Below, piece by piece: positions 5,575-36,806 of a stretch of 64,000 nucleotides of DNA. The notes beneath the pieces are model-generated. The model worked only from the letters and a program-made list of their open reading frames with translations, searched no databases and was not told where the DNA came from. The first letter of the stretch is position 1. Each line of letters opens with the position of its first letter. Both the position numbers and the translations under genes were made by a program. Source of the stretch: Candidatus Zhuqueibacterota bacterium (GTDB lineage: Bacteria > Zhuqueibacterota > Zhuqueibacteria > Oceanimicrobiales > Oceanimicrobiaceae); assembly GCA_029262005.1 (NCBI GenBank), contig JAJDAG010000012.1, forward strand, positions 3,161 through 67,160. The letters are read 5' to 3'.

Positions 5575-5601
5575 CAAGTAAGGTTATGGAGGGGTTACTA
5601 A

Positions 5602-7186: not shown

Positions 7187-7221
7187 AACCCTCGCAGAGT
7201 TTGAACCCCTGGAAGGGTTAC
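7187..7221. repeat. GC-rich palindromic intergenic repeat (family 1, inverted orientation relative to the other copies), 20 nt after the sulfatase stop
   Basis: AACCCTCGCAGAGTTTGAACCCCTGGAAGGGTTAC; its reverse complement aligns with the 28541 copy (AACCC-TTCCAGGGGTTCAA...GAGGGTTG). Confidence 0.5.
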
Positions 7222-7245
7222 TAAAGATACCGATGGAGAAAACCT

Positions 7246-10122
7246 ATGATAAATAAAGGAAAAATTACCTGGATACGCTGGATCAATTTTCCACTCGCAG
7301 CGCTTTTACTGGGCTTGTTCATCGCTCCAGCAACCCGCGCCACCGCTTCGGATGAGCTTGATCAGAGCCGGAAAAAGTACATGGATTGGGTGATCGGCCC
7401 GAACCTGGATTATGAAGCCGCCCCGGTTAAGCAACGCTATAATGCCTTGAAAAGCTATATCTCCCGCGCGCACCGGAACTACGCTGATTACGATTATGCT
7501 AATCCCGGCGCGGCATACGATTTAAACAATTCCACAGACTATGACGAGTTGAAAGATATATTCCAATCAGTCATCCTGCCCCTTTCTGTGAGTTACCATT
7601 TGGCGGGCCCGACCTCCGATCCGAATCCCGATTTTCACAATGCCGAAGTTTTAAACAAGATTTTGAATGTCTTTAACTATATGCATGCCAGGGGCTGGAA
7701 AAAAGGCATCGTCATCCCGCTGAAAGATGGCGTTACTCTGGATGACGATATCAATGTCTATGTTCCATTTTCAAATTCAATTCTCATGCGTTCGGCGGGA
7801 TATGCACACAGTGTTTTGATCATGCGCGACGCGTTGAAGACAGCGGGTCTTTTAGCGCGCGAGCTGGAAACCCTCGATTGGACGACGCGCCTGCTGACGC
7901 CTCCCGACCAACCCTGGGCGTTCACCCATACCGGTTTTAATACCGACGGTGTACGCACAATCGCCATTCACCGGCTGCTCTACGTTCTCGCCCAGGATGC
8001 CACCGACTCTACCCGAGTCAACAATATCCAGGCGCTGGTGGACTTTCTGGAGAATGCCCTCAGTCTTGCCAATGGCTGGGCGGATATGATCAAACCGGAT
8101 TACCTCGGTTATCATCACAAAATCGCCTACGGCAGCGCCTATGTACCGCAGGCGCTGCATTGCGCAGCGCTCACCGCCTATCTTCTGCAAGGCACCCCAT
8201 TTTCTCTGCCGGAGCAGACGCTGGAGAATATCAAAAAATCGCTTCTGGCGCACCGCCTCATCGCCAATAAATATGATATCCACGACGGCGTCACCGGGCG
8301 TTTCCCGGATAATCTCGACGGCCTGGCCAAACACCTGCCGGCCTATGCCTACATGGCGCTGGCGACTGAGCCCATCGACACCGAGATGGCCGCTGCGTTT
8401 ATGCGATTGTGGCAGCCCGGATATTCAAGCGTGCAATCGAAACTTTTTAAACAAGTGAAAAGCACTATCAGTTATTTTCATACCATGGGTTCTCTCGATA
8501 TTATGTTGCAGCTTGCGCAGCAAGGAATTGCCGCCGAACCGGATCCCGCCGGTCACTGGGTAAAACCTTATGCCGCCATGTCCATTCACCGCCGCGATGA
8601 CTGGATGGTGGCTGTGAAAGGCTACAGTAAGTACATGCTGAGTTATGAACAATCTGACGACGAGAATGTTTACGGGCGCTATTTCAGCTATGGCTTCATG
8701 AAAATATTGTCGCAGGGAAATCCGGTTAACAGCGAAGCCAGCGGCTTTATCGAAGATGGCTGGGATTGGAAACGCCTGCCGGGCGTTACGGCGATCAATG
8801 TGCCGTTGAGCCAGTTAAAAGGCGACGAGCCACACGGTGATCGCAAATTTACCGACCAGTCCTTTGCCGGTGGCGTGAGCTTGTCAGGCAAACACGGCGT
8901 CTTCGCGATGAAACACTTTGACGTTAACTCAAACAGCCAAATGCGCGCCAATAAATCGATGTTTTTTTTCGATAACCAGATCGTTTGCCTGGGTTCGAAT
9001 ATCATCAACGGCAGCAGCTTCAACCAGACAGAGACGACACTGTTTCAAAGTCATCTCGCTTCTCGCACCACGCCGAACAATGTGGACGCACAAGAAATCA
9101 CTGCTTTCCCGTATGATTATGCCGCTGACGGTTCGGAGGCTATTTGGCTGACCGATCCCGTTGGCAACGGCTATTATTTGCCAAATCGAGAAGGCGTGCA
9201 TGTCCTGCGTTCGACGCAGGAATCCCGAGACAACGGTGACAAGGGCACGACCAGAGAGAACTTCGCCACAGCCTGGATCGACCATGGCAAAAAACTTGAA
9301 AACGCAGCGTACGAGTATGTCGTCCTGGTCAAAAGCACACCGGAGGAGGTGCAGGATTTTGCCCAAAACGCGTCAGCGCAGTACACGGTTTTGCAGCGGG
9401 ATAGCAGCGCCCACATCGTGCGGCACGAGCAACTCGGACTGACGGGCTACGCCCTGTTTCAGGCGCATGCAAGCCTTGAAGTTGAAGGCGATTTGCAAGC
9501 AACCGACACGCCGAGTCTGGTTATGACGAAAAGCGAGCCTGGTAAACTGACCGTGAGTGTCTGCAATCCTGATTTCGGCTGGCTTGCTGAAGACCAATTT
9601 ATTGTCTTTGACAACCTCAGCAAAAACAATAATCTTGAATTATTAAATACACCTTCCAAAGTTTTGCCGGTGCAGATTACATTGAAAGGCGTGTGGAGGC
9701 TCGATAGCCAGGCGGACAACGTTCGCATTCTCGAAAGTGACAGCGACAAAACAGTCGTACAATTTGACTGTTTTGACGCCCAAAGTGTCGAAGCGCAATT
9801 GGTTGGCCAAACTACCGGGGTTGTGGATGACTCTAAAAGCATACCTGAAAACTACATCAGCACCAATTACCCGAACCCATTTAACCCGGCAACAACCATT
9901 GAATACTCCGTTCAACAGTCGGGATTTGTCTCAATAAAAATTTATGCCGTTAACGGTAGATTGGTTCAAATTCTTGTTGCTGAGAAAAAACATGCGGGTC
10001 AACACACCGCTGTTTGGGATGGGAAAAATGTAAATGGGAAAACCGTCAGCAGTGGTTCGTATTTCTATCAAATAAAGGGCGACAGTTTCACCGCAACAAA
10101 AAAAATGCTTTTTATTAAATAA
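7246..10122 (+). CDS. Polysaccharide lyase family 8-like (chondroitin AC/hyaluronate/xanthan lyase fold) secreted through T9SS
   Basis: signal peptide; NGWADMIKPDYLGYHHKIAYGSAY reproduces the PL8 catalytic His-x3-(A)Y-x2-AY spacing (compare HTNVAYTGAY of hyaluronate lyase); C-terminal NYPNPFNPATTIEYSV...GSYFYQIKG...KKMLFIK T9SS tail. Confidence 0.7.
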   Translation: MINKGKITWIRWINFPLAALLLGLFIAPATRATASDELDQSRKKYMDWVIGPNLDYEAAPVKQRYNALKSYISRAHRNYADYDYANPGAAYDLNNSTDYDELKDIFQSVILPLSVSYHLAGPTSDPNPDFHNAEVLNKILNVFNYMHARGWKKGIVIPLKDGVTLDDDINVYVPFSNSILMRSAGYAHSVLIMRDALKTAGLLARELETLDWTTRLLTPPDQPWAFTHTGFNTDGVRTIAIHRLLYVLAQDATDSTRVNNIQALVDFLENALSLANGWADMIKPDYLGYHHKIAYGSAYVPQALHCAALTAYLLQGTPFSLPEQTLENIKKSLLAHRLIANKYDIHDGVTGRFPDNLDGLAKHLPAYAYMALATEPIDTEMAAAFMRLWQPGYSSVQSKLFKQVKSTISYFHTMGSLDIMLQLAQQGIAAEPDPAGHWVKPYAAMSIHRRDDWMVAVKGYSKYMLSYEQSDDENVYGRYFSYGFMKILSQGNPVNSEASGFIEDGWDWKRLPGVTAINVPLSQLKGDEPHGDRKFTDQSFAGGVSLSGKHGVFAMKHFDVNSNSQMRANKSMFFFDNQIVCLGSNIINGSSFNQTETTLFQSHLASRTTPNNVDAQEITAFPYDYAADGSEAIWLTDPVGNGYYLPNREGVHVLRSTQESRDNGDKGTTRENFATAWIDHGKKLENAAYEYVVLVKSTPEEVQDFAQNASAQYTVLQRDSSAHIVRHEQLGLTGYALFQAHASLEVEGDLQATDTPSLVMTKSEPGKLTVSVCNPDFGWLAEDQFIVFDNLSKNNNLELLNTPSKVLPVQITLKGVWRLDSQADNVRILESDSDKTVVQFDCFDAQSVEAQLVGQTTGVVDDSKSIPENYISTNYPNPFNPATTIEYSVQQSGFVSIKIYAVNGRLVQILVAEKKHAGQHTAVWDGKNVNGKTVSSGSYFYQIKGDSFTATKKMLFIK

Positions 10123-10141
10123 AGTGGTTTTTAAACCATGA

Positions 10142-10200
10142 TAACTGAAACAAAGATATTGAGTTATTGCAAACGCATTATAAATATACGGTTTCAGTTA
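10142..10200. promoter_or_regulatory. Perfect 10-bp inverted repeat TAACTGAAAC-N39-GTTTCAGTTA upstream of the MFS/ROK genes (candidate operator)
   Basis: read directly in the 104-bp gap before the GTG start at 10227; RBS AAGGATGGAG follows. Confidence 0.4.
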
Positions 10201-10226
10201 GTCACTAAACAAAGGATGGAGATCAA

Positions 10227-11489
10227 GTGAACAGGAATTATTATACCGTCGGCTTAATTTTACTCATTTTTTTCGTCATCTCATTTTTAACGAACATTCT
10301 TGGGGCCTTAAATCCAAGTGCGTCGTCGAGCTATGGTTTGAGCGAAACCATGGCCGGATTTTTACCTTTCTCGTTTTTTATCGCCTACGGCGTCATGTCG
10401 ATTCCCGCCGGTTTTATGCTGGAGCGGTTCGGCGAAAAAAAGATGATGGTTTTTGCCTTTATCCTCGCCCTGGCAGGCTCGCTCCTGTTCGCAGGTGTGC
10501 CCTCGTTCGGAGTCTTTGTTTTTTCATTATTTACCATCGGCACCGGCATGGCGGTTTTGCAGGTGGTGATCAATCCGTTGCTCAGAGTAGCAGGCGGTGA
10601 AGAGCACTATGCTTTTACATCGGTGCTGGCGCAATTGATTTTTGGGTTGGCTTCTTTCATAAGCCCACAAATGTACACCTGGTTGGTGACCGGATTAGAT
10701 AAGAGCACTGCGCACACCGGCGGCATCATCGGTTTTCTCTCAAATGTGGTGCCCGCAGATATGTCCTGGGTCTCGGTTTACTGGATGTTCACCCTGTTCA
10801 GCCTAGGGATGATCGTTGTCGTTTTTCTTTCCAGCTTTCCGAAAGTGGAGCTGAAGGACGATGAGAAAGTCGGCAGCAAAGAGAGCTACTTTGACCTGTT
10901 CAAAAATAGAATGGTTATTCTCTACTTCCTTGGCATTTTTGCATACGTTGGCGCCGAACAGGGCATTTCCTACTGGATGTCAAAATTTCTGCAAGTTTAC
11001 CACGGCTATGATTATGAAACCGTTGGCGCCGGCGCTGTGGCCAATTTCTGGGGCCTGATGACCATCGGCGGCCTGCTGGGATTGGTTCTGTTGAAAATTC
11101 TGGATAGCAAATTAGTGCTGAAACTCTTCACCTTGCTGGCGATCATCTGCCTCCTGGCGGCGCTGTTTGGCCCGGCCGAAACCGCCCTTTATGCTTTCCA
11201 GGCGAGTGGATTCTTTCTCTCGGTCATGTACCCGATTATCATTTCCCTGGCCTTGAATTCGGTCAGCAAACATCACGGTTCTTTCGCAGGAATTTTAATG
11301 TCCGGAATCATGGGCGGCGCTGTGGTGCAGTTGCTCATCGGCTTTATCAGCGATTTTACCTCGCTCAAAGTCGGCATGATGTTTATCTTCGTCGCCCTCG
11401 GCTATATTCTCAGTATCGCCTTTTGGGCCAGGCCTTTAATTGAAAATAAAACAATTAATTTGAAGAAAAAAGAGCCTGTGACAGTTTAG
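10227..11489 (+). CDS. MFS sugar permease of the FucP/GluP (glucose-galactose/hexosamine) type
   Basis: 12-TM profile; N-terminus YYTVGLILLIFFVISFLTNILGALNP...MAGFLPFSFFIAYGVMSIPAGFMLERFGEKK is typical of the L-fucose/glucose-galactose permease family. Confidence 0.8.
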   Translation: MNRNYYTVGLILLIFFVISFLTNILGALNPSASSSYGLSETMAGFLPFSFFIAYGVMSIPAGFMLERFGEKKMMVFAFILALAGSLLFAGVPSFGVFVFSLFTIGTGMAVLQVVINPLLRVAGGEEHYAFTSVLAQLIFGLASFISPQMYTWLVTGLDKSTAHTGGIIGFLSNVVPADMSWVSVYWMFTLFSLGMIVVVFLSSFPKVELKDDEKVGSKESYFDLFKNRMVILYFLGIFAYVGAEQGISYWMSKFLQVYHGYDYETVGAGAVANFWGLMTIGGLLGLVLLKILDSKLVLKLFTLLAIICLLAALFGPAETALYAFQASGFFLSVMYPIIISLALNSVSKHHGSFAGILMSGIMGGAVVQLLIGFISDFTSLKVGMMFIFVALGYILSIAFWARPLIENKTINLKKKEPVTV

Positions 11490-11531
11490 ATTTGGCATAT
11501 TCATTCACGATTGAGGAAGGTTTTTATTTAG

Positions 11532-12377
11532 ATGAAATCTGTTATTGGCGTTGACCTGGGGGGCACGAAAGTCAGCCTTGGCAAGGTGCAGGATCAAAGG
11601 ATTGTCGCTCACTACAAAACGAATGTTTCTGCCGACAAAGAGAGCGATTTCGTTGTGCAGGAAATCATCGAGGCCATTGACATGGTATTCGACGATTCTG
11701 TTGTCGGCATCGGCATTGGCGTGCCCAGCCTTGTCGATGTAAAACGAGGGATCGTCTACGATGTGCAGAACATTCCTTCGTGGAAGGAAGTGCATTTGCA
11801 AGAAATACTGGAGGCCCGTTTCGATATCCCGGTGCGAATCAATAACGACGCCAACTGTTTTGCGGTCGGTGAAAAATATTTTGGCAAGGCGCGTGATTAT
11901 CAAAATATCGTCGGCGCGACTATCGGCACGGGCTTTGGCACCGGGGTGATCATCAACAATAAATTGTATTCCGGTAAAAATTGCGGCGCGGGCGAGTTCG
12001 GCATGCTGCCTTACAAAGACCACGTTTTGGAATACTATTGCAGCGGCCAGTTTTTCAAAAACATGCATTACGTCAAAGGCGAAGAAATTTACGCACGTGC
12101 GCGGGAAGGTGATGAATCCGCAATCAAACTGTTCGACGAATTCGGCGCCCACGTCGGCGCGGCAGTGAGCACGATTTTGTACACAGTCGATCCTGAAATT
12201 ATCATTTTCGGTGGTTCGATCAGCAATGCCTACCCACTCTTTCAAAAAACGATGTGGCAGTATCTTGAATCTTTTGCTTACCAAAAGGCTTTGCAAAAAT
12301 TACAAATTGAAATCAGTGAAGAACCCAACATCGCTGTCCTGGGCGCTGCGGCGCTCTATTTGGATGCGCATAACTGA
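11532..12377 (+). CDS. ROK-family sugar kinase (short form without the CxCGxxGCxE zinc motif); likely hexosamine/glucose kinase
   Basis: MKSVIGVDLGGTKVSLG (N-terminal ATP-binding motif), NDANCFAVGEKYFG, GTGFGTGVI. Confidence 0.75.
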   Translation: MKSVIGVDLGGTKVSLGKVQDQRIVAHYKTNVSADKESDFVVQEIIEAIDMVFDDSVVGIGIGVPSLVDVKRGIVYDVQNIPSWKEVHLQEILEARFDIPVRINNDANCFAVGEKYFGKARDYQNIVGATIGTGFGTGVIINNKLYSGKNCGAGEFGMLPYKDHVLEYYCSGQFFKNMHYVKGEEIYARAREGDESAIKLFDEFGAHVGAAVSTILYTVDPEIIIFGGSISNAYPLFQKTMWQYLESFAYQKALQKLQIEISEEPNIAVLGAAALYLDAHN

Positions 12378-12390
12378 GAGAAATAATAAA

Positions 12391-15300
12391 ATGTTAAAGA
12401 GAAAAGTAACAAACGTGGTCATGTTTTCCTGCATGATTTTCAGCATGTTTTCTGCGTTGAACGCTTTTTCGCAGGGAAAAGATACTTTCAAAAACTGTGA
12501 ATCCTTTGAGATGCAAATTATTCCCGATGCCTGGCAGGTTGCCGGTGGCAGCTCACTCGAACTGTCGACGCGCCATTTCAAGCACGGCAAACGATCCCTT
12601 CTATGGCAATGGCAGGCAGGCGCGATGCTGACGGCAACCAAGCCGCAGGGATTGCAAAAAGCTACAGCGGCAATCGGCGGTGGCGATACCGGAAGGGATG
12701 AAAATGAACCCAAATATATCTCAAAGAATAGCAAACAGGGTGGTTTCAAGGCCTGGATTTACAATGAAACGCCGGTTAAAGATTTCGTGACCTTTCGCTT
12801 TGGCTCGGCTGCCGATTTGCAGCAGAACATGCCGCGCTACAGCTTTGATTTCCACCTGAATTTTAAAGGTTGGCGCGCAGTTTGGGTGCACTTCGAACAG
12901 GATGCGCGCAACCCGAATTATACCGGCGACAGTCCGGTGGCAGTCATGGACATCATCCCGCCGCAAAGCGTGAAAGAAGGCGCCTTGTTTTTTGACCTTA
13001 TCGAGTTCGTGGATTACATGTCGTGGAAACGCAGCGCGGATTATCAGTTTCCCAAAAAGAGCGTCCATGCTGACGCGGGAAAATGGGGAAAAACCTATAT
13101 TTACAGCCAATTAAATCCACCGGAAAAAGCGAAAGACGCCATTAGCGATGCTGAAAAAGAAGCCTTTCGCACTATTGAAAAACGCTACACAAAATGGGTT
13201 CTGGGCGACAATATAGATTTAAACAACGAATCCATAAAAATACGCTACGATGCGCTGACAAAATTTATCCACAAGGGCATCAAAGCCTATGAACGACTCA
13301 ATATTCAAATTAAAGACGGCGCAATTACCGGACTGCCGCTTTTCTCCAGCCGCAGCCCGCACAAACCAAAGATCGGCAAGACTGTGCTGGCCCCTGTTTT
13401 TCTGCCGCTTGCTTTGGATTATTTGATCAACGGTAATGCGCAGAGCAAAGAGAAAGTGATGACTTTATTCGATTATGTGCATGACCAGGGCTGGGCAGAT
13501 GGCAGTGGCATGGGCACGCTGAATCACCAGGGAAACCGCGTTTCGGGTTATATGCACGCTGTTATGTTGTTGCGCGATGAGTTGCGCAAGGTCGGCAAGC
13601 TGGAACGTGAAATGGCGGCGATGGCGTGGTTTACCGATTTCGGGCAGATTTACGTTGAGAATGAAGTGGGGGACGAAATCAGCGCCGACAACCTCAGAAC
13701 GAAATTTATGTACCGCCTTTTGGTTGTGCTTTGTATGGAAGACTCCCCCGAAAAAGTGGTGAAGATGCGCTATCTCAACCGCTGGATGAATCGCGCGCTG
13801 GCCATCATGCCGGGTTTTCTGGATACAATCAAGCCAGATTATACCGGCTATCACCACCGCGGCGTTTATAGCGCGGCTTACGCGCCGATGGCTTTTCATC
13901 TTTCTTCGGCGGTCACCTATTTGGTGCACGGCACCGAATTCGCCGTGCCGCAAGAGGGCATGAACAACCTGAAAAATGCGCTGCTGACCATTCGGACTCA
14001 CGCCAACAAATACGATGTGCCCGCCGGTATTTGCGGGCGCTTTCCCGAAAATTTGAGCGTGCTCAATCGCATTCTTCCCGCCTATGCCTACATGGCGCTA
14101 TCGAGCGATCCCATCGATAGCGAGCTGGCTGCAGCCTTTATGCGTTTATGGAAACCGTCCTCAAAGCGCTTGCGCGAGGGACTGTTCAGGCGCGCTGCCA
14201 GCAACATTGAATATTACGACACAATCGGCGCTATTCAGATTATGCAGGAACTGGCGGCCAAAAACATCGCTGCTGAAAAAGCGCCGGTCGGTCACTGGTA
14301 CAAGCCGTACGCCGGTTTAACGATTCACCGCCGCGGCAACTGGATGGTGAGCGCCAAGGGATGGAGCCAATATATTTGGGATTACGAATCCAGCGGCACC
14401 GAAAATAAGTTCGGGCGCTATCTCAGCTATGGCGCGATTCAAATTTACAGTGGAAAAGGATCCATCGCCAGCGGCTATAATCTGAAAAAAGGCTGGGACT
14501 GGAATCGCTGGCCTGGCGCCACCACCATTCATCTCCCTTTGAAAGATTTGAATCACAAGGGACGCATCTCGGCGACATATAAAGAAGGCAGGCATCGCAA
14601 TTTCTCCGATGAGACATTTATGGGCGGCGTCACTCTCGGCCAGCGCAACGGTATTTTCGCGATGAAGCTGCACGACACCGCTTATAATCCCAGCTTCCGC
14701 GCCCGGAAATCGGCCTTCTTTTTTGATGATCAGGTGGTCTGTCTCGGCTCGGGAATCGAAAATAACGACGCCGAACATGCGACGGAAACGATGATTTTTC
14801 AGACCTACCTGACTGCGCCCGAAAATCCGCAGTGGGTGAACGACGAAGAGCCGACGACACAATTCCCCTTCGAGATAAAATTTGCTGACAGCGAAACCGT
14901 GTGGCTGATGGATCCGGTTGGAAATGGCTATGTCGTGCCGCAAGCGCACAATCTTCAGGTCAGCCGCGCACAGCAAAATTCCATACATCACAAAGGCAAA
15001 AAGAAAACCGTTGGCGATTATGCGACCGCCTGGTTTGCTCACGGTACCCAGCCCGCGGGAACGGGCTATGAATATGCCATACTCGTGAAATCAACGCCGC
15101 AGAAAGTCAAAGCCTACGCAGCCGCGCCCGAATACAAAACGCTGCAAAAAGACAACAATGCGCATATCGTTCGACACGAGAAAAAGCGCACAACCGGTTA
15201 TGTTATTTTTGAGGAAAAAGAAACGATTACCCACGGCGCTATTCGCCGCGCGAGCGCACCTGTGCTGTTGATGGTTAAAGACGCAAAAAATGGCATGACT

Positions 15301-15546: not shown

Positions 15547-15550
15547 AAAA

Positions 15551-16834: not shown

Positions 16835-16851
16835 TAAAGGAGTTATGTTGA

Positions 16852-18210: not shown

Positions 18211-18282
18211 CACAATGTTTGCAAAGCCTTGGCGGGTTCAGCTCGACCAATAACAAAATTTTGACAACCAGATGGGAACACG

Positions 18283-19467: not shown

Positions 19468-19469
19468 GA

Positions 19470-20678
19470 ATGGTGAAACATAATATGAAATCTTTTGCGC
19501 TCAAAACTTTGGGCGTGGCTGTTCTTTTAATTGGTGCGCTTTCTTGTTCTCAGAACAACACAAATTTAAAGGAAGTCTTCGTTTCCAGCTTACGGTTTTC
19601 GCAAGCGCAGTTAAAAAAGGCCGTTGCCGAAGTGAATGACCCTGCGCAATACCCCCGAAGCACATTGGAAAACGGCAAGTGGGGAACAACATCTTCGACA
19701 GATTGGACAGCCGGTTTTTTCCCGGGTTGCTTGTGGTATATGTACGACTGGACATCCGATTCTTCCTGGCAGGAACTGGCTGAAAAATGGACCAACGGAC
19801 TGGAGAAGGAAAAATATAATACCAACACCCATGATGTCGGTTTTATGATATTTTCCAGTTTTGGCAATGGCTACCGCTTAACCCGCAATCCGCATTATAA
19901 GGATGTTATTCTGCAAGCGGCGCAAACCTTGGCGAACCGTTACAATCAAAAAGTGGGATGCATTAAATCCTGGGATTTTATGGGCGACGATAAATATCCG
20001 GTAATCATCGATAATATGATGAACCTGGAACTCCTTTTCTGGGCCTCAAAAAATGGCGGCAAGAAAGAGTGGTACGATATTGCAATCAGCCACGCTGAGA
20101 AAACCATGAAAAATCATATTCGCGACGATGCCGGCAGCTATCATGTCGTGCTTTACGATACGCTCACCGGCAATGTCAAAGAGAGAATTACTTTTCAGGG
20201 TTATGCCGATGAATCGACATGGGCGCGGGGACAAGCCTGGGGGATTTACGGTTTTACCATGGCATTTCGCGAAAGCGGCGATGAGCGATTCCTGAAAACA
20301 GCGCACAGGCTGGCCGCCTTTTTTATCCGCCATCTGCCTGAAGATTATATCCCTTATTGGGATTTTAACGCGCCTGAAATACCCAATGAAGAAAGGGACA
20401 CTTCAGCAGGTGCTGTTGCGGCGTCCGCCCTGCTTGAATTGATGAAATTCACCCGCGAACCCGAATTGAAAGAGCAGTATTACAAAACAGCCCGGACAAT
20501 TCTCGCGAACCTTTCAAAACCCCCATACCTAGCAAGGGGAGCGGAGAGCAGCGCCATTCTTCTGCAAGCTGTCGGCGCAAAGACGCGAAACAAGGAAATT
20601 GATGTGTCCCTCATTTATGGTGATTATTATTATTTAGAAGCTCTGTTGAAGTTTCAGAATATGAAAAGGAAAAATTAA
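19470..20678 (+). CDS. GH88 unsaturated glucuronyl hydrolase paralog (lipoprotein-type signal)
   Basis: HDVGFMIFSS, IIDNMMNLELLFWASKNGG, TWARGQAWGIYGFTMAFRESGDERFL; tandem with the 18283 gene. Confidence 0.8.
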   Translation: MVKHNMKSFALKTLGVAVLLIGALSCSQNNTNLKEVFVSSLRFSQAQLKKAVAEVNDPAQYPRSTLENGKWGTTSSTDWTAGFFPGCLWYMYDWTSDSSWQELAEKWTNGLEKEKYNTNTHDVGFMIFSSFGNGYRLTRNPHYKDVILQAAQTLANRYNQKVGCIKSWDFMGDDKYPVIIDNMMNLELLFWASKNGGKKEWYDIAISHAEKTMKNHIRDDAGSYHVVLYDTLTGNVKERITFQGYADESTWARGQAWGIYGFTMAFRESGDERFLKTAHRLAAFFIRHLPEDYIPYWDFNAPEIPNEERDTSAGAVAASALLELMKFTREPELKEQYYKTARTILANLSKPPYLARGAESSAILLQAVGAKTRNKEIDVSLIYGDYYYLEALLKFQNMKRKN

Positions 20679-20690
20679 ATATTTTCACCC

Positions 20691-20726
20691 AACCCTTTCA
20701 GGGATTACAAGCCCCGGAAGGATTAC
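20691..20726. repeat. GC-rich palindromic intergenic repeat (family 1), 13 nt after the GH88 stop
   Basis: AACCCTTTCAGGGATTACAAGCCCCGGAAGGATTAC; arms CCTTTCAGGG/CCCCGGAAGG can pair (9/10 including a G-U). Confidence 0.5.
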
Positions 20727-20765
20727 TGACAATAGTGTTAAGAAAACCCGAATTGGAGATAAATT

Positions 20766-21596
20766 ATGGATAGAAAATGTTTTGCGGATGAAATTCGCTA
20801 CCAAAGGATGAGCACGCAGGAGCTGCGAGAATCGTTTTTGGTCGATAAGCTGTTTCAGCCGAACGTGATCGACCTTTGTTATACGGACGCTGATCGCGCG
20901 ATTGTTGGCTCTGCCGTTCCCGGTGCGGAGAGTTTGCGCCTTGCCACTGCCAAATACATGGCCTCGGATTATTTTGCTGAACGTCGGGAAATCGGCGTCA
21001 TCAATATCGGCCAAACCGGTTCAATTACGGTCGATGGCGAGAAATACAATTTGGACCACCGCGACGGCCTTTATATTGGCCGCGGCAACAAGGAGATTCT
21101 TTTTAGCAGCGAAAACGCGGCTGCTCCGGCTCGATTTTACATTTTGAGTTATCCTGCTCACACTGAATTCCCCACCACACATATCAAAGCTTCGACCATC
21201 GATCCGGTCCAGATCGGGGTGAATGAGGAAGCCAACGCGCGCGCCATTTATAAATACATCCATCTCGAAGGCGTGCGAAGCTGCCAGCTTGTCATGGGTC
21301 TTACTGAATTGCAAAAGGGCAGCATCTGGAACACGATGCCGGCACACACGCATGATCGGAGAACTGAAATTTATATGTATTTCGACTTGGGGAAAGATGA
21401 TTTGGCTTTCCATTTCATGGGTATGCCAGATGAAACACGACATATTGTGATCAGAAATCAACAGGCGGTTTTATCGCCGGGTTGGTCCATACACTGCGGC
21501 GCCGGAACCAGCAACTACACATTTATCTGGGGCATGGGCGGGGAAAACCAGGATTATGGCGATATGGATATGGTTGGAATGAAGCAATTGCTGTGA
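20766..21596 (+). CDS. kduI: 4-deoxy-L-threo-5-hexosulose-uronate ketol-isomerase
   Basis: near full-length similarity to E. coli KduI: GLYIGRGNKEILFSS, LTELQKGSIWNTMPAHTHDRRTEIYMYF, TRHIVIRNQQAVLSPGWSIHCGAGTSNYTFIWGMGGENQ. Confidence 0.9.
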   Translation: MDRKCFADEIRYQRMSTQELRESFLVDKLFQPNVIDLCYTDADRAIVGSAVPGAESLRLATAKYMASDYFAERREIGVINIGQTGSITVDGEKYNLDHRDGLYIGRGNKEILFSSENAAAPARFYILSYPAHTEFPTTHIKASTIDPVQIGVNEEANARAIYKYIHLEGVRSCQLVMGLTELQKGSIWNTMPAHTHDRRTEIYMYFDLGKDDLAFHFMGMPDETRHIVIRNQQAVLSPGWSIHCGAGTSNYTFIWGMGGENQDYGDMDMVGMKQLL

Positions 21597-21622
21597 CATA
21601 AAACGGAAGGAGATATAAAAAA

Positions 21623-22783
21623 ATGCTTGGCAGGAAGCGACTTTACATTTTTCTATTCACAGCGCTGTTTTTTTCTCAGTGTAAAAGTAACCATGATAGG
21701 CTTTTGATCACGGCTGCGAACGATTTGAATATCGAGCGTAAAAGCGAAACGATTGAGCTGCGATGGCAACACATTATCGCGAAAATACCGACGCTCAACC
21801 CCGGGTCCATTGAACTGACCGAGCAGGCTTCGGGTGCAAAACTCATCTCGCAGACCATTGATTATGATCAGGACGGGTCTGTGGATGCCTTGCTCTTCCA
21901 GGCTGATTTCGCGCCGAAAGCAGTCAAAACATTTGTGCTGCAGGCCACAAAAGAAGCCGCTCTCGTGGAAACGGCGTCAAAAACATACGCCAAGTTTGTG
22001 CCGACCCGATTCGATGATTTCGCCTGGGAAAACGACCGCATTGCCTTTCGCATGTACGGCCCGGCGCTGCAAGCAAAAGGTGAGATCAACAGCGGTGTCG
22101 ATGTTTGGGTGAAAAGCGTGCCCAATTTGGTGCTCGATAAATGGTACGCCCCCGATTATGGCTCCTATCACGAAGACAAGGGTGAAGGACTTGATCATTA
22201 TAAAGTCGGCCCCAGCCGAGGCTGCGGCGGTCTGGCTATTTGGGCAGATGAAAAAATGATCCCTTCCAAAAATTTCATTGAATGGAAGATCATTGCCAAT
22301 GGCCCGATTCGTACGGTTTTCGAATTGACTTATGCACCCTGGGAGGTTGCCGGTGACAAAATCTCCGAAATCAAACGCATCACCCTCGATGCCGGTCAGA
22401 ATCTGAATCGATTCGAAAGCACGTTCAAGAGTGCGCAGAACCGCGAGACGCTGCCCATTGCAATCGGCATTGTAAAGCGCGACAAGCCGGGCGATGTTTC
22501 CATGGATACAAAAAACGGTGTGTTGCGATACTGGCAGCCTGCGCATGAAAAGCATGGTCATACCGGCTGCGGCGTTGTGATTGCTCCTGCAAAAGTAAAT
22601 GATATGAAAGAACTTTCCGACCATTTTGTGGTCAGCACTGAGGCGAAAACCGCAAGTTCTTTGACCTATTATGCCGGTGCCGGGTGGAGCAAAAATGCTG
22701 ACTTCCCAACGCTGGCTGCCTGGGATAATTATTTAGCGCAATTTTCCGCCGGGTTGGCTTCACCGCTGCGGGTTGAGTTTTAA
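21623..22783 (+). CDS. Lipoprotein of the DUF4861-like type that sits between kduI and kduD in many uronate loci
   Basis: signal + Cys (FFSQC); position between kduI and kduD; no catalytic motif recognised. Confidence 0.45.
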   Translation: MLGRKRLYIFLFTALFFSQCKSNHDRLLITAANDLNIERKSETIELRWQHIIAKIPTLNPGSIELTEQASGAKLISQTIDYDQDGSVDALLFQADFAPKAVKTFVLQATKEAALVETASKTYAKFVPTRFDDFAWENDRIAFRMYGPALQAKGEINSGVDVWVKSVPNLVLDKWYAPDYGSYHEDKGEGLDHYKVGPSRGCGGLAIWADEKMIPSKNFIEWKIIANGPIRTVFELTYAPWEVAGDKISEIKRITLDAGQNLNRFESTFKSAQNRETLPIAIGIVKRDKPGDVSMDTKNGVLRYWQPAHEKHGHTGCGVVIAPAKVNDMKELSDHFVVSTEAKTASSLTYYAGAGWSKNADFPTLAAWDNYLAQFSAGLASPLRVEF

Positions 22784-22805
22784 AAAGATAAGGGTGGATT
22801 GAAAT

Positions 22806-23567
22806 ATGATATTAGAACAGTTTAGACTGGATGATAAAATTGCCATCGTCACCGGCGCTAACAGGGGCATCGGACAGGCCATGGCGATTGGGCTGGCCGA
22901 AGCCGGGGCAGATGTTACACTTGTCAGCAGAAATCCGGCCGATGCCACGCAGCAAACCATTGAAAAGCTCGGGCGAAAAGCAATTGTCATTTGCGCTGAT
23001 CTCGCATCACCAGGCAGCATCGAGACTATTGTCAATTCCACGATAAAAAAGTTCGGCAGAGTTGATATCCTCGTTAACAACGCCGGTATTATTCGCCGGG
23101 CGCCCTTCACGGAATTTTCTGAAAAAGACTGGGATGACGTTATCAATGTGAATCAAAGATCGCTTTTCCTGTTAAGTCAGGCAGTCGCAAAAGAATTCAT
23201 CAAACAAAGTGATGGCGGCAAGATAATCAATATCGCTTCAATGCTTTCTTTTCAAGGGGGTGTTTTTGTGCCATCCTATACCGCTTCGAAAAGCGCGGTG
23301 ATGGGATTGACGCGTTTGATGGCCAACGAATTAGCGCCGCATAATATCAATGTAAATGCCATTGCTCCGGGCTACATCGCGACCGACAACACCGCCCCTT
23401 TACGACAAGATGCAGCACGGAACAAAGCGATTCTCGAACGAATTCCGGCCGGGCGCTGGGGCCAGCCTGAAGACTTGAAAGGCATCGTCGTGTTTTTGGC
23501 ATGCGCTGCTTCGTCGTATATGCACGGTTATACGGTGGCAGTAGATGGCGGATGGCTGGCCAGGTAA
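22806..23567 (+). CDS. kduD: 2-dehydro-3-deoxy-D-gluconate 5-dehydrogenase (SDR)
   Basis: near-collinear with E. coli KduD: KIAIVTGANRGIGQ, DILVNNAGIIRR, FSEKDWDDVINVN, GGKIINIASMLSFQGG, VPSYTASKSAVMGLTRLMANE, NAIAPGYIATDNT, RIPAGRWG, GYTVAVDGGWLAR. Confidence 0.9.
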   Translation: MILEQFRLDDKIAIVTGANRGIGQAMAIGLAEAGADVTLVSRNPADATQQTIEKLGRKAIVICADLASPGSIETIVNSTIKKFGRVDILVNNAGIIRRAPFTEFSEKDWDDVINVNQRSLFLLSQAVAKEFIKQSDGGKIINIASMLSFQGGVFVPSYTASKSAVMGLTRLMANELAPHNINVNAIAPGYIATDNTAPLRQDAARNKAILERIPAGRWGQPEDLKGIVVFLACAASSYMHGYTVAVDGGWLAR

Positions 23568-23661
23568 TTATTTTAGACGATTGCTTCCAGGGTTTGCTAT
23601 CCTTCGATGCTTTAGCTTGATCGATTCACAAATCGACAATTTGCGACCATAAAATATGAGT

Positions 23662-23774
23662 CGGGTTGTCACTCAGGAGGCGTCTTTGTAATAAAGTAAG
23701 CTGCTGTGAATCAATAGGATTCCTCCTGATTGACAAGGATGTTGTGAATTGTTCAGGTTAGAAAAAAGAATGAG
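23662..23774. promoter_or_regulatory. Conserved ~110-nt intergenic element, copy 1 (15-bp inverted repeat TTGTCACTCAGGAGG / CCTCCTGATTGACAA with 56-nt arm-to-arm offset, then GGATGTTGTGAATTGTTCAGGTTAGA...AATGAG), 34 nt upstream of the TonB-dependent receptor start
   Basis: near-identical architecture and flanks recur at 33940-34052; spacer core CTGCTGT conserved. Confidence 0.5.
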
Positions 23775-23807
23775 ATTTATTAATTTTACCGGATTATGGA
23801 GGGTTAA

Positions 23808-26720
23808 ATGAGACAGAGAACGCAAATCAGTTTTTTGTGCTTTATCATACTTCTTGGCCTCAGCTTGTCAACTCTGACTGTTAACGCTGCTGTCAGTGGA
23901 AAGATAGCCGGCCAGGTGACTGATGCAAACACAGGGGAATCGCTGCCCGGGGCAAATGTTATGATAATCGGCACAAGTCTTGGGACTGCAACTGATCCTG
24001 AAGGAAGATACTTTCTGCCGAGAGTCCCGCCAGGTCAATATACACTAAAAATCAGTTATATCGGCTATCAAGAGATAGAACTACCGGTAACGGTTTATGC
24101 TGATCAAACCTTAACCCAGAACGGACAACTGTCCTTCCAGGTTGTCGAAGGGGAAAGCATTTTTATCACAGCCCAGGCGGAAGGGCAAATGGAAGCGATT
24201 AACCAGCAACTCTCATCAACCAGCATTAAAAATATCGTTGCTTCCGATCGCATTCAGGAAATTCCAGATGCCAACGCCGCTGAATCCGTGGGCAGGTTAC
24301 CAGGGGTTTCCATACTGCGCAGTAATGGTGAGGGCAACAAGGTTGTTGTTCGCGGGCTTTCACCTCAGTACAACTCGGTAACGGTTAACGGCGTCCGCAT
24401 GGCCTCCTCCGGCAATGATCGGAGTGTGGATATGTCCATGATTTCATCTAATCTGCTGTCCGGTATTGAGGTTCAAAAATCGCTTACGCCGGATCGGGAT
24501 GCCGATGCCATCGGTGGTATTGTAGATTTCAAACTGAAAGAAGCGCCAAACGGCTTTAATACGGATCTTTTGTTGCAAGGAGGTTACAACGGCCAGCAAT
24601 CAGAAACGGATAATTACAAAATGGCTGCTTCGTTCAGTAACCGGTTCTGGAACGATAAGTTCGGTGTTATCGTGCAAGCGAATACCGAGCGATTCAATCG
24701 CAGCTCGGATAATTTGAGCGGTAGTTATCGCATTGAAAAAGAAGATTTGGAAACCAACACCGCCGATATTCTGCTCAGTTCCATCACCCTGACCGATCAC
24801 CTGGAGTCGAGAAAACGCACCGGCGCCAGCCTTTTTCTGGATTATAAATTACCCCAGGGCAAGGTTGCTTTTCATAACTTCTATTCCTTGATGGACCGGG
24901 AAATTACGGATTATAAGGAAACGCTGAATATAAATGAAGTCCAACACAATTACCAGCCCACGCAATCGAATAGGAAGACCACCACGTTAACCAATGCGCT
25001 TTCTATGGAGAGCGTCTTGTTTGGTTCGAAAATCGATGCAAGTCTTGCTCATTCCTTCGCCTCCTCAAAAATACCGTGGCAGCATTCATGGACTTTCCAG
25101 GAGCCGGGTGGTTTTGCCAGCGGTTTTGATCCGGAGGCCATTTTGCCGGTTGATGTGCAGGCCTTCGCGAAAAACGATAGCGTCGCTGCCTTTTTGAATA
25201 ACATGAGCCGGGTCAACAGTTTTACCGAAGAGAGGGAATATACAGCCCAGGCCAATATCGAGATGCCTTTCGCGTTGACAGACAATATAAGCGGTGCCTT
25301 CAAGTTTGGCGGTAAATATCGTTACAAAACCCGAGAACACGACATCAATGAAAGGACAGTGCTCTTTAGAGTTGAGGAAGCCTTGCGCGCTGAGGTATAT
25401 GGAGCCTATCCCTTCATCGGAGATAACGTTGTTGGAGAGAAAGTGCCAATCTGGCTTTTGCAAGATCGCAATTATGATCCGGGTGAGTTTCTCGGCGGCA
25501 ACTATGATTTAGGCTATACCGCTGATTTGGATATAATGGAGCACATTACCGAACTGGGCCGATCTTACGAAAAAAATGACGCGACTGAGTCATTGCAAGA
25601 TGATTATAGTGGTAACGAAGCTTTGGGCGCCGGTTATGCCATGGCTGAAATCAACCTGGGATCGAAACTCCTGTTTATCCCCGGCGTCCGCTATGAGCGC
25701 ATCCGGACGGAATATCAGGCATGGAAGGCCAGTGATAATACCGACCCCGGCAACCCTGAAGATACCGATGCCGTGGATACAACCACTGTGCGAATCAACA
25801 GTCATTTTTTCCCGATGTTCCAGTTGCGCTACAAGGTCACAGATTGGTTTGATGTTCGCCTGGCGCGAACAAAGTCCCTGACGCGCCCTTCTTACCGGGA
25901 CATTATGCCCAAGCAGTTTTTGGACACACGCGACAATAAATTCTTTTTCAATAACCCTCAACTTGAACCTTCCATTTCGGTGAATTACGACCTCTACCTG
26001 TCGTTTTACGGCAATCGTATCGGTCTCTTTACAGTTGGCGGATTTTACAAAGAAATCGATGGGCTTATTTGGCAACGGCAATGGTCCTTGTTGCGCAATT
26101 CGTCTGACACCGAGGCATTTTTGGCTGAAAACGGACTGAGCAATACCATCGTTGGCTACGAAGTGACAACAGACATCAACAATCGATTCAAGGCATCTTT
26201 CAAAGGGGTAGAATTTGACTGGCAGACGAACTTTTGGTATTTGCCAAATCTGTTCCGCAATCTCGTGCTGAATATAAACTACACTCATATTTTTTCCGAG
26301 ACCACTTACCCGCGTGTGCTGTTGCGGACCCAATACTTAAACGAAGCACCCTGGGTTTTGGAAGAAAACCTGACGGCAGATCGCGATGGCCAGATGCTGC
26401 ATCAACCGAATAACGTTGTAAATATTTCGCTTGGCTATGATATTAGTGGCTTCTCTGCGCGTCTCTCGATGTTGTACCAGGGAGAAATCCTCTCCAGGTT
26501 GGGTGCTCGCCCCGAGGTCGATGGTTTTACCGAAGACTATGTTCGTTGGGATCTCTCGGTGAAACAAAATCTGCCTTTTAGCGGGCTCCAGTTATATTTA
26601 AACCTGAATAACATATCTGATCGTCCGGATATATCTCGTCGACCGATTGAGACTTTCGTCACCAGTGAGCAATATTATGGCAGGACAGGTGAAATTGGAA
26701 TTCGATACGTCATCAAGTAA
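23808..26720 (+). CDS. TonB-dependent outer-membrane receptor with N-terminal carboxypeptidase-regulatory-like domain (SusC-like architecture, no SusD partner)
   Basis: signal peptide; GKIAGQVTDANTGESLPGANVMIIGTSLGTATDPEGRYFL...ISYIGYQEIE (CarbopepD_reg); plug region DRIQEIPDANAAESVGRLPGVSI...VVRGL; long beta-barrel; GGAGGG RBS. Confidence 0.8.
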   Translation: MRQRTQISFLCFIILLGLSLSTLTVNAAVSGKIAGQVTDANTGESLPGANVMIIGTSLGTATDPEGRYFLPRVPPGQYTLKISYIGYQEIELPVTVYADQTLTQNGQLSFQVVEGESIFITAQAEGQMEAINQQLSSTSIKNIVASDRIQEIPDANAAESVGRLPGVSILRSNGEGNKVVVRGLSPQYNSVTVNGVRMASSGNDRSVDMSMISSNLLSGIEVQKSLTPDRDADAIGGIVDFKLKEAPNGFNTDLLLQGGYNGQQSETDNYKMAASFSNRFWNDKFGVIVQANTERFNRSSDNLSGSYRIEKEDLETNTADILLSSITLTDHLESRKRTGASLFLDYKLPQGKVAFHNFYSLMDREITDYKETLNINEVQHNYQPTQSNRKTTTLTNALSMESVLFGSKIDASLAHSFASSKIPWQHSWTFQEPGGFASGFDPEAILPVDVQAFAKNDSVAAFLNNMSRVNSFTEEREYTAQANIEMPFALTDNISGAFKFGGKYRYKTREHDINERTVLFRVEEALRAEVYGAYPFIGDNVVGEKVPIWLLQDRNYDPGEFLGGNYDLGYTADLDIMEHITELGRSYEKNDATESLQDDYSGNEALGAGYAMAEINLGSKLLFIPGVRYERIRTEYQAWKASDNTDPGNPEDTDAVDTTTVRINSHFFPMFQLRYKVTDWFDVRLARTKSLTRPSYRDIMPKQFLDTRDNKFFFNNPQLEPSISVNYDLYLSFYGNRIGLFTVGGFYKEIDGLIWQRQWSLLRNSSDTEAFLAENGLSNTIVGYEVTTDINNRFKASFKGVEFDWQTNFWYLPNLFRNLVLNINYTHIFSETTYPRVLLRTQYLNEAPWVLEENLTADRDGQMLHQPNNVVNISLGYDISGFSARLSMLYQGEILSRLGARPEVDGFTEDYVRWDLSVKQNLPFSGLQLYLNLNNISDRPDISRRPIETFVTSEQYYGRTGEIGIRYVIK

Positions 26721-26879
26721 AGAAGAGGACTAAAAGAATCCTGAGCAGACACATTCAGATAAACTAATTTCCACGTGGCTTTTAATCAACACGCAGTTCT
26801 TCAGAAAGGAGGTTTAAAGAATTTTTTTTAGTAAGTGAATAAATAATTAGAACCAATTATTTAAAGGAGGGTTTGCAAA

Positions 26880-28514
26880 ATGCATTCACATCAAAAAAGT
26901 AGTTTTATTTTTGCCATGATACTGTGCTTAAGCATGGTTATGCCTGTAGTTGTGCTGGCTCAACCCAATACCGTTGTTGTCGAGCCCGGGGTAGGCACTC
27001 TGAATGATGCTGTGGCGGCCAATCAGAATTCCGATACTATATTGCAACTGCGGCGTGGCGGCCGTTATACTTTAAACGGCAGACTGAAAAATGACGGTTT
27101 TACGCTTCACATCGAAGGCGAAGCTGATGATCCGAACAATCCATTGCCGCCGGCAACCATTTGGCCGATAACCAAATCGGACGGCACTTCTGACAACCCG
27201 CTCATCGAAATGAAGGGGGATGGCATATTCAAGAATATCGCTTTCCTGGGAATGAATTCCCAACTAGTCCGGATGGCAAATGCTATAAAAGTTCAAGCTG
27301 ACAGCGTTCGTCTTGTTGTTGATAACTGCCTCTTTGAGCATTTCAGGAACAGGGCTATCCGGGCCAAATCAAACGGGATCGATGTTTTTTTAACCAACAA
27401 TATTTTCAGGAATATTCTGGACAAGACGCGCAACTGGTATAATGCGGGCGCGCTCTCGCTCGATCACCTTCCCGCCGATACAGTCTGGTATGAAAACAAC
27501 ACCTTTGTCAACGTCCAGAGCTTTGTCTTCCAGGTCAGGTTTAATGTTGTCAACCATGTCCATTGGAATCACAACACCGTGGTCAATAATTCAAAGAATA
27601 CTTTTCATTTCGAGCAATGGACCGATGGCGTCGTTACCAACAATCTTTTTATCAACACTCAATTCTCCGGCGATTCCGATTCGGAAAGATCCGGCCAGGA
27701 TTTGGATGGTTTGGCCAGAGGCTCATGGATGATTGATACATTGGATGTTGCATTGGGTATTCCCGAGGCATCAAGAAAAGTTCTGCTGGGCAACAATAAC
27801 TGGTATCTGGATCCAAAATTCATCGATTTCTACGCCACCAACGATACGGTGCAGGCGCAACCTTTCTTTAATGAAACTGCGGCAGCCTTTTTCGCCGATA
27901 ATGTGAACTACCCCGATGTAATCGAGCAAAACAATACCCAGATCGATCCCCAGTTCACCACGCCACCGGATAATATCGATGCGATTATTGCCTGGTCAAC
28001 GGAACGGCGCATGAATCCGGTACCGAATGAAGTCACTGAATGGGCATGGGACCCGGATGGTGATCCATTAACAATTGGTTGGCCGCTCTCTGAGGACTTG
28101 AGCTACGCGAGCAGCAGCCCTCTCTATACCGCCGGTAGTGATGGGTTCCCTCTTGGTGATCTAAACTGGTTCCCGGATAAAAAAGCAGAGTTTGTGACGA
28201 GCGTTGAAACTGAAACACCTTCATCTATTCCGAGTGCTTTCGAGTTGTCACAAAACTATCCAAATCCCTTCAATCCTGAAACGTCCATCCAATACGCTCT
28301 GAAGAAAAACGGCCACGTGACATTGACCGTGTTCAACGTGCTTGGTCAGAAGTTCGCCACCCTTGTCGATCAAAAACAACAGGCCGGCCAGCACAGCGTG
28401 CACTGGGATGGCCGGGACCAAAGAGGTGAGCTTGCACCAAGCGGTGTATATTTCTACAAACTTGCACTGGATGGCTTTCAAAGTCAGACACGTAAGATGG
28501 TTTTGATGAAGTAG
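26880..28514 (+). CDS. Secreted right-handed parallel beta-helix protein (polysaccharide lyase/hydrolase-like) with T9SS C-terminal sorting domain
   Basis: repeats NNIFRNIL..., NNLFINTQF..., NCLFEHFRNRAIRAKSNG; C-terminal NYPNPFNPETSIQYAL...GVYFYKL...RKMVLMK. Confidence 0.65.
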   Translation: MHSHQKSSFIFAMILCLSMVMPVVVLAQPNTVVVEPGVGTLNDAVAANQNSDTILQLRRGGRYTLNGRLKNDGFTLHIEGEADDPNNPLPPATIWPITKSDGTSDNPLIEMKGDGIFKNIAFLGMNSQLVRMANAIKVQADSVRLVVDNCLFEHFRNRAIRAKSNGIDVFLTNNIFRNILDKTRNWYNAGALSLDHLPADTVWYENNTFVNVQSFVFQVRFNVVNHVHWNHNTVVNNSKNTFHFEQWTDGVVTNNLFINTQFSGDSDSERSGQDLDGLARGSWMIDTLDVALGIPEASRKVLLGNNNWYLDPKFIDFYATNDTVQAQPFFNETAAAFFADNVNYPDVIEQNNTQIDPQFTTPPDNIDAIIAWSTERRMNPVPNEVTEWAWDPDGDPLTIGWPLSEDLSYASSSPLYTAGSDGFPLGDLNWFPDKKAEFVTSVETETPSSIPSAFELSQNYPNPFNPETSIQYALKKNGHVTLTVFNVLGQKFATLVDQKQQAGQHSVHWDGRDQRGELAPSGVYFYKLALDGFQSQTRKMVLMK

Positions 28515-28540
28515 GCTGGTTACAACGTTTGCAGAATTCT

Positions 28541-28576
28541 AACCCCTTCCAGGGTTTCAAGCCCTGGAGGGGTTGA
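28541..28576. repeat. GC-rich palindromic intergenic repeat (family 1), 27 nt after the beta-helix gene stop
   Basis: AACCCCTTCCAGGGTTTCAAGCCCTGGAGGGGTTGA; 11-bp stem with one bulged T, loop TTTCAA. Confidence 0.5.
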
Positions 28577-28834
28577 CTTAATGTTATTGCAATCAGGTTA
28601 GAAATTGTTTGTCCCGGCCTTTCAGGAGCAGGGGAAATCCGTGGCGAATGCTTATCTTGGTGCGTGCTCGATAACACCATAACCCCCACAGATCAACATA
28701 GAACTAAAATGGGGGCTTGCAATACCATTTTCAAGGGCAGGGTGGATGTGTACTGTAATTGTTTACTCTATTCAGGATTTGTACATTGTTTTTGAGTAGC
28801 CAGGTGATTTTAATTGATGTCGGATTGAGATAAG

Positions 28835-30139: not shown

Positions 30140-30171
30140 AATTAGATCTAAAAGAAAAAGCGAAACAAGTT

Positions 30172-31161: not shown

Positions 31162-31171
31162 GCTCGTGGGA

Positions 31172-31690: not shown

Positions 31691-31708
31691 TCAAAAGGAA
31701 GGAAATGA

Positions 31709-33004: not shown

Positions 33005-33009
33005 TTAAC

Positions 33010-33040
33010 GAAGACTACTATTTTTGGTCTTCATTTTTGT
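33010..33040 (+). terminator. Rho-independent terminator after dctM
   Basis: GAAGAC-(11 nt)-GTCTTC stem followed by ATTTTTGT. Confidence 0.5.
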
Positions 33041-33077
33041 AAGAATCTAAGCGGTTTATTACTTGGGGTGTTGAAAG

Positions 33078-34807: not shown

Positions 34808-34808
34808 A

Positions 34809-36804: not shown

Positions 36805-36806
36805 AT

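Follow-up and report, generated by a model that had tools for sequence, protein, structure and literature searches.

The 64,000-nt stretch of contig JAJDAG010000012.1 analyzed here (the window) comes from a Candidatus Zhuqueibacterota bacterium (assembly GCA_029262005.1) and carries four copies, A to D, of a palindrome of 33 to 34 nt. The copies are probably repetitive extragenic palindromic (REP) elements, of a family presumably recognized and spread by a REP-associated tyrosine transposase (RAYT), a single-strand DNA transposase of the HUH/Y1 type; judged by its sequence, this RAYT is of a family related to Escherichia coli TnpA-REP and to the TnpA of IS200/IS605. Palindromes of the same family occur in unrelated contigs, where they too lie between genes, mostly past stop codons, and beside RAYT genes, which bears out the dispersed REP-like repeat proposed in an earlier, sequence-only reading of this DNA. 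In the host genome itself, we infer that a RAYT has acted.

The copies are readily recognized with a covariance model, R2, that was built from outside sequences only and contains no window sequence. On the window this model matches exactly four sites: copy A (AACCCTCGCAGAGTTTGAACCCCTGGAAGGGTT; positions 7187 to 7219; 25.9 bits, E = 5.5e-5), copy B (AACCCTTTCAGGGATTACAAGCCCCGGAAGGATT; 20691 to 20724; 22.2 bits, E = 6e-4), copy C (AACCCCTTCCAGGGTTTCAAGCCCTGGAGGGGTT; 28541 to 28574; 37.1 bits, E = 4e-8), and copy D (AACTCAGGCAGGGTTTTAGGCCCTGTCTGAGTT; 40504 to 40536; 24.5 bits, E = 1.4e-4). The next-best match is background, with 9.3 bits and an E value of 2.5. Copy C is the best preserved, departing from the family consensus by one bulged T and one compensated pair, and A and B are degenerate palindromes. 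Copy D is diverged (16.1 bits with another model, R1), and its hairpin is paired throughout when G-U pairs are counted; its ends (AAC...GTT) and apex (CAGGGTT...CCCTG) are as in the family, and the middle pairs differ on both sides. In local alignments of C to either strand of the window, A (score 36) and B (score 32) were the two best non-self matches, above the maximum of 27 found over 40 dinucleotide-preserving shuffles of the window, and the A/C pair is the longest inverted repeat of the window. The three palindromes of the sequence-only reading are thus real and lie where it put them; copy D, which lies outside the range it described, had been missed.

All four copies are in intergenic DNA, which makes up about 7% of the window, and each follows a plus-strand stop codon at a distance of 8 to 26 nt. 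Copy A occupies a 78-nt gap between a sulfatase gene (5602 to 7167) and a gene for a polysaccharide lyase of family 8 (PL8; 7246 to 10122), 19 nt past the stop and 26 nt ahead of the next ATG. Copy B is found 12 nt past the stop of a gene for a glycoside hydrolase of family 88 (GH88; 19470 to 20678), in the 87-nt gap that separates it from the gene for KduI (20766 to 21596). Copy C lies 26 nt past the stop of a gene for a protein with a type IX secretion system (T9SS) tail (26880 to 28514), where a structured intergenic region of 320 nt begins, ahead of the gene for an anaerobic sulfatase-maturating enzyme (anSME; from 28835), and copy D lies 8 nt past the stop of a CcsA-like gene (39659 to 40495), with the next gene 118 nt away. 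The placement of the three intact copies shortly after plus-strand stops, as first described, therefore agrees with the measured gaps. That they lie inside operons fits A and B, which sit in gene arrays, but probably not C, whose position at the head of a long intergenic region suggests an operon end. The copies are all single within the 64-kb window, with no inverted doublets or clusters of the kinds known as REPINs (REP doublets forming hairpins) and BIMEs (bacterial interspersed mosaic elements). Their flanks are unrelated, so they are not the product of a segmental duplication; A and B have TTACTNA in common in the plus-strand 3' flank. The sequence GGAGGGGTTACTAA, in the 27-nt gap at 5575 to 5601 ahead of the sulfatase gene that starts at 5602, is similar to the 3' arm and flank of copy A (GGAAGGGTTACTAA), with a chance-level score.

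No strand can be assigned to any of the copies, since the element is near-symmetric. Against C, copy A scores 36 on the minus strand and 32 on the plus strand by alignment, and R2 gives it 25.9 and 21.0 bits, respectively; the covariance models match B and C, too, on either strand. The description of A as an inverted copy consequently falls away, and the argument that occurrence in both orientations marks a dispersed repeat has no basis for such a palindrome. A half-copy had also been placed after kduD, at 23592 to 23603. The sequence concerned, CTTCCAGGGTTT, is in fact at 23584 to 23595 on the plus strand, 16 nt past the kduD stop, and is an exact 11-nt match to one arm. Its alignment score of 24 to 26 is at shuffle level, and the window scans with R1 and R2 did not match it. 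Allowing up to one mismatch, CTTCCAGGGTTT has four matches in place of the 1.0 expected, two of them inside A and C. The half-copy may be a remnant, yet it is indistinguishable from chance.

Outside the window, a scan of metagenomes with a pattern satisfied by both A and C found the same palindrome at 36 loci in unrelated contigs, many of them from Bacteroidota. Nearly all of these loci have a perfect palindrome made of AACCCTTCCAGGGTT, a loop of 2 to 4 nt, and AACCCTGGAAGGGTT. Positions that the pattern left free agree too: of about 16 independent single-copy matches, 12 have a stem lengthened by TT..AA. The loci are almost always intergenic (26 of 43 sites lie no more than 30 nt past the stop of an open reading frame [ORF] of at least 100 amino acids [aa]), some sites are between convergent genes, and the upstream genes are unrelated, including those for PurL, Asd, and a Mur ligase. 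The stem covaries, with both partners altered in 5 of its 15 pairs and pairing in 98.5% of cells, and the observed covariation was not matched by any shuffle. The consensus arms, of 15 nt each, are small palindromes in their own right (AACCCT-N3-AGGGTT). In the searchable literature, 13-mers of the element matched only an unrelated primer, and a pattern scan of a viral contig collection gave no matches. A scan of genome contigs with one arm and the loop gave 61 matches that were discarded, nearly all of them being chance occurrences in coding sequence for NPFQGF-type peptides.

In one population (contigs JACCDH, JACCDI, and JACCDQ, here JACCD; 37 to 41% GC), there are more than 20 identical copies, up to three of them within 3.4 kb. 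These contigs are Bacteroidota-like, encoding proteins with T9SS tails and CarboxypepD_reg domains. Behind each copy in this population (loci L063 to L098; for example, L070 at 4400 to 4522) comes a tail of about 70 nt, AGGATGATAATCAATCGATTAC...AAAAAACCACCTAA, that is conserved and oriented, in the constant order gene stop, hairpin, tail, indicating that the mobile or functional unit there exceeds the palindrome. Two other arrangements were seen. The Bacteroidota metagenome-assembled genome (MAG) ELA624 (L013, L050, and L061) has a composite repeat of about 200 nt in which the 15-mer AACCCTKSMAGGGTT occurs three times, its orientation alternating, together with other small hairpins; one side of the match is conserved and the other side diverges. 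The Fibrobacteraceae MAG SRP192927_co6_101 (L025, L048, and L049) has three matches to the 20-mer AAAACCCTTCCAGGGRTTCAA in one genome, without a complementary second arm.

The link to a transposase comes from loci at which the palindrome adjoins a gene. At L067, copies lie on both sides of a 201-aa ORF whose product resembles NCBIfam NF047646, "REP-associated tyrosine transposase" (E = 1.4e-15; 57.5 bits, under the 80-bit equivalog cutoff). It has NHFH as its HUH motif and its catalytic tyrosine in YIHNNP, and used as a profile it has a single PDB match, 4ER8, which is E. coli TnpA-REP. A Pfam search with this ORF gave no match; another member of the family, P0121, has a precomputed match to Y1_Tnp. 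Homologs of the L067 ORF are found 71 to 72 nt from the palindrome at L064 and L089. A database search with three of the proteins gave more than 7,700 relatives (of about 202 aa) at E ≤ 1e-10 among 8,000 candidates scored; most of those for which an organism is named belong to Flavobacterium and Aequorivita, and the label given in some sources is "REP element-mobilizing transposase RayT." Further RAYT loci were picked by protein identity alone. The gene of Flavobacterium endophyticum (L105) has TACCCTGACAGGGTTTTGAACCCTGTCAGGGTA-type palindromes on both sides and a third copy 7 kb off, that of Aequorivita (L106) has TACCCATCCAGAGTTTAAAACTCTGGATGGGTA upstream, the L113 gene has copies on both sides, and the RAYT genes of the JACCD population (L108 to L110) have a consensus copy on one side, past the stop. 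The palindrome or a compensated variant thus adjoins the gene for a HUH/Y1 protein of about 200 aa in all five distinct RAYT loci examined, all of them in other genomes, and the RAYT association that the sequence-only reading had suggested looking for does exist for the family.

The three F. endophyticum copies (2656 to 2688, 9911 to 9943, and 10632 to 10664 of L105) each lie within their own copy-specific palindromic flank, the flanks being GATATTC...GAATATC, CCCG...CGGG, and TACCTAC...GTAGGTA. It looks as if these elements are in the loop of an older hairpin or as if the stem was extended site by site.

The family has much in common with the REPs of E. coli and Pseudomonas (including BIMEs and REPINs) and their RAYTs. 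Both consist of short imperfect palindromes that are extragenic and mostly 3' of genes, both include a single-copy HUH/Y1 transposase gene with further copies at its flanks, and, going by PMC6006769, which lists mRNA stabilization, termination, and effects on translation for E. coli REPs, roles in mRNA stability and termination are expected in both. The elements here differ in having no 5' GT[AG]G guide tetranucleotide at the foot, in their longer, near-perfect 15-bp stem with a loop of 3 to 4 nt, and in the single occurrence of the window copies. Compared with the RAYTs of those REPs, the associated protein is about 200 aa, has NHFH instead of DHLH as the HUH motif, and is without the WQ/WE motif. 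REPs are usually species-specific, according to the same paper, whereas the core described here is common to RAYTs only 31 to 41% identical and to contigs of 31 to 57% GC.

Other likenesses are to systems of the Bacteroidetes, in which, as reported in PMC6006769, TnpA-REP genes have atypical hairpins at their flanks, of which the genome holds more copies. The TnpA-Y1 subclasses 2.4 and 2.6 (Quentin et al. 2018; Bertels groups 4 and 5) resemble the proteins here in host range, in YIHNNP and NH[IFV]H, and in a length of about 180 to 200 aa, and subclass 2.6 genes are flanked by atypical, non-GTAG secondary structures that are copied elsewhere in the genome (PMC6006769, passages covered). The motifs given there are NH[IFV]H and YIxNNP for subclass 2.4 and YIH[QN]NP for subclass 2.6. 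The fit is mixed, with NHFH fitting 2.4 and both the absent WQ motif and the non-GTAG hairpins fitting 2.6; those passages hold no sequence for the subclass hairpins. The CGTC-tagged REPs (Di Nocera et al. 2013, PMC3733652), which include examples from Bacteroidetes, are also small stem-loops found mainly 3' of ORFs, between unidirectional or convergent genes, and G-T pairs in their stems likewise hint at an RNA role. They have stems of 8 to 9 bp, a terminal CGTC tag, and no dedicated transposase, in contrast to the 15-bp, tagless, RAYT-associated elements described here. The subterminal hairpins of the insertion sequences (IS) IS200/IS605 are similarly imperfect hairpins that serve a HUH/Y1 enzyme as single-stranded DNA substrate, and a bulged T like that of copy C is a feature of such sites. 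Unlike them, the window copies are not at IS ends, and the associated gene is flanked by the elements rather than lying inside a defined IS.

By this comparison, the folded single-stranded hairpin would be the substrate of the RAYT, and copies would persist where insertion is tolerated, in short spaces just 3' of stop codons, where they should do little harm. Copies C and D would have remained strong hairpins (about -24 kcal/mol), with A and B decaying. The predicted RNA folding energies are -24.5 kcal/mol for C and -23.2 kcal/mol for D on the plus strand, compared to -10.5 (plus) and -15.7 (minus) kcal/mol for A and -12.5 (plus) and -13.5 (minus) kcal/mol for B; being weak and better folded on the opposite strand, A and B look like decaying copies rather than maintained RNA signals. 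Within the mRNA of the upstream gene, intact copies could act as barriers to 3' exonucleases, and so as stabilizers, or as weak terminators lacking a T-tract. In E. coli, a REP within about 15 nt of a stop codon affects translation; by analogy, copies B and D, at such a distance, could affect translation termination.

Ordinary intrinsic (Rho-independent) terminators were rejected as an identity for the copies: a hairpin is present in each case, and the sequences 3' of the four hairpins (ACTAAAGA, ACTGACAA, GACTTAAT, and TGCAGCCG) contain no T-tract, in agreement with the original description. A terminator scan of positions 20001 to 40000 did not call B or C and called canonical T-tract terminators elsewhere (e.g., 33010 to 33032). 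Rfam gave no match at the gathering threshold over the whole window. At relaxed thresholds only generic hairpin matches of no more than 17 bits were found around copy C, and matches of up to 25 bits, far under the gathering scores, around one JACCD copy.

The presence of T-tract terminators elsewhere in the window makes the copies a distinct class, and they could on that ground be host-made attenuators or RNA-stability hairpins without a T-tract, evolved in place in the glycosaminoglycan operons and alike because a common RNA-binding or processing factor acts on them. All of them closely follow a stop codon on the transcribed strand and precede a gene of that strand, which would suit this role, as would the strength of C and D, the latter being more stable as plus-strand RNA owing to its G-U pairs. 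We consider this origin unlikely, given that the same sequence stands beside RAYT genes and after unrelated genes in other taxa, that A and B are degenerate, with better folding on the strand that is not transcribed, and that D follows a cytochrome c biogenesis gene unrelated to the utilization cluster. The element is also absent from the loci of relatives (68 to 70 kb, including a KSB1 genome and a relative with 76% leucyl-tRNA synthetase [LeuRS] identity), in which there are zero copies and no gene junction of A to D is preserved; this suggests a lineage-specific repeat rather than a conserved signal, only loosely since the junctions differ. An attenuator or stability role can in any case go together with a REP origin.

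The clustering of three of the four copies among genes for sulfatases, PL8 lyases, GH88, KduI, and KduD, along with the palindromic nature of each consensus arm, raises the idea of DNA operators, that is, transcription factor sites for chondroitin and uronate utilization genes. It is highly improbable: the copies come right after stops instead of at promoters, operators do not typically have a 15-bp stem with a loop of 3 nt, the self-palindromy of the arms is lost in variants, the fourth copy is outside the regulon, and other organisms have the identical sequence next to transposase genes and past housekeeping genes. Chance likeness or local duplication of ordinary hairpins, the latter named in the sequence-only reading as one outcome that would undo its proposal, can be discounted almost entirely. 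Only four copies are known, and a half-site search alone is not significant (three matches versus 0.8 expected), but none of the 40 shuffles reached the scores of A and B, the R2 E values of 4e-8 to 6e-4 are separated by a gap from the 9.3 bits of the background, and the flanks, as noted, are unrelated. These explanations are thus weakened jointly by the RAYT association, the unrelated genes in other taxa, the fourth copy, and the statistics.

Several other identities were rejected. Integron attC sites do not fit, as the feet of the window copies do not match RYYYAAC...GTTRRRY core sites, the flanks are operon genes rather than cassettes, and the Pfam scans found no integrase; the feet of the JACCD copies, CCTAAC...GTTAGG, do resemble attC core sites, unlike those of the window copies. 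Known attC sites are about 57 to 141 nt long, and the 33-nt element is shorter. A tRNA-like T-arm minihelix would have a TTCRA loop, in contrast to the TTTAAA of most family loops. A REPIN-style doublet of a self-palindromic 15-mer was discarded in view of the loss of self-palindromy in the F. endophyticum, Aequorivita, L113, and copy D variants, and CRISPR repeats were discarded for want of arrays.

A number of points weigh against a RAYT-spread REP family as the source of the copies. With the GT[AG]G and CGTC tags defined as in PMC3733652 and PMC6006769, neither a GTAG nor a CGTC tetranucleotide is conserved at the hairpin foot, whether in the window or in the wider family; the plus-strand feet of the window copies are AAGAC|AACCC, CACCC|AACCC, ATTCT|AACCCC, and AAATG|AACTC, and the minus-strand feet are TTAGT|, TCAGT|, AAGTC|, and CTGCA|. 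Neither tblastn nor Pfam scans found a RAYT in the window, and by the Pfam scans the window encodes no transposase. The host appears to be related to candidate division KSB1, which has the nearest named homologs (62% identity for GH88 and 67% for LeuRS), and not to Bacteroidota, and the RAYT-bearing genomes that can be named are those of Flavobacteriia. There are only four copies in 64 kb, and three are in one polysaccharide utilization gene cluster. For A and B the mRNA folds less well than the minus-strand RNA, so that selection for an RNA role leaves no sign at those two sites. Finally, the pattern used to fetch the outside loci was derived from A and C, and the likeness of these copies to the fetched set is therefore partly built in.

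The window consists of a glycosaminoglycan utilization cluster followed by housekeeping genes. The cluster encodes several sulfatases, two PL8 lyases, two GH88 hydrolases, KduI, and KduD, as well as a SusC-like TonB-dependent receptor, proteins with T9SS tails, the anSME, and a TRAP transporter. The SusC-like receptor gene (23808 to 26720) is followed, without a recognizable SusD, by the gene for a 544-aa protein that matches only C-terminal secretion-tail models in Pfam (Por_Secre_tail, FlgD_ig, and CHU_C); the TRAP transporter lies downstream. Directly after copy D, at 40655 to 43337, there are two tandem paralogs, each with a GYF_2 domain and a ParA/MinD-type ATPase. A separate repeat of about 100 nt, with 79% identity between its copies at 23662 to 23762 and 33940 to 34040, folds into an extended hairpin (TTGTCACTCAGGAGG ... 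CCTCCTGAnTGACAAGG) with TGTGAATTnTTCAGGTTAGA after it. One copy is upstream of the gene for the SusC-like receptor (23808) and the other upstream of a pair of genes for 2-keto-3-deoxy-6-phosphogluconate (KDPG) aldolase and a kinase (34145), and the repeat possibly serves the uronate regulon as a common leader or operator; the motif TCAGGTTAGA is present as well past copy C, near 28598. A strain-level contig (L062, from Logan SRR15505514) is 99.5% identical to the window from 21348 to 23760 and diverges completely after 23760, at the end of the repeat, beyond which it has a different, 114-aa gene. This divergence may be a recombination or an assembly breakpoint at the repeat.

The elements had not been listed before, but they belong to a familiar class of small bacterial repeats and are ordinary in kind. 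We regard as a long shot the bolder suggestion that the core (ACCCT-N3-AGGGTT, loop, AACCCT-N3-AGGGT) is of unusual age or horizontal mobility, being near-unchanged across divergent RAYTs, a wide GC range, and a KSB1-like genome, and that intact copies have perhaps been co-opted as 3'-end or stability elements without a T-tract in polysaccharide utilization operons. Were it true, it would imply repeated transfer of RAYT/REP systems across phyla or a conserved host factor that reads the sequence. REP/RAYT systems are well characterized mainly in Proteobacteria, and the family described here ties a REP without GTAG to a large RAYT-like clade, with probable relics of the same REP in a KSB1-like genome. 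It would provide a hairpin-enzyme pair for asking how GTAG-less RAYTs choose their substrate, an annotation marker for such repeats in genomes of the FCB group, which includes Bacteroidota, and candidate sites at which REPs may tune expression in polysaccharide utilization operons.

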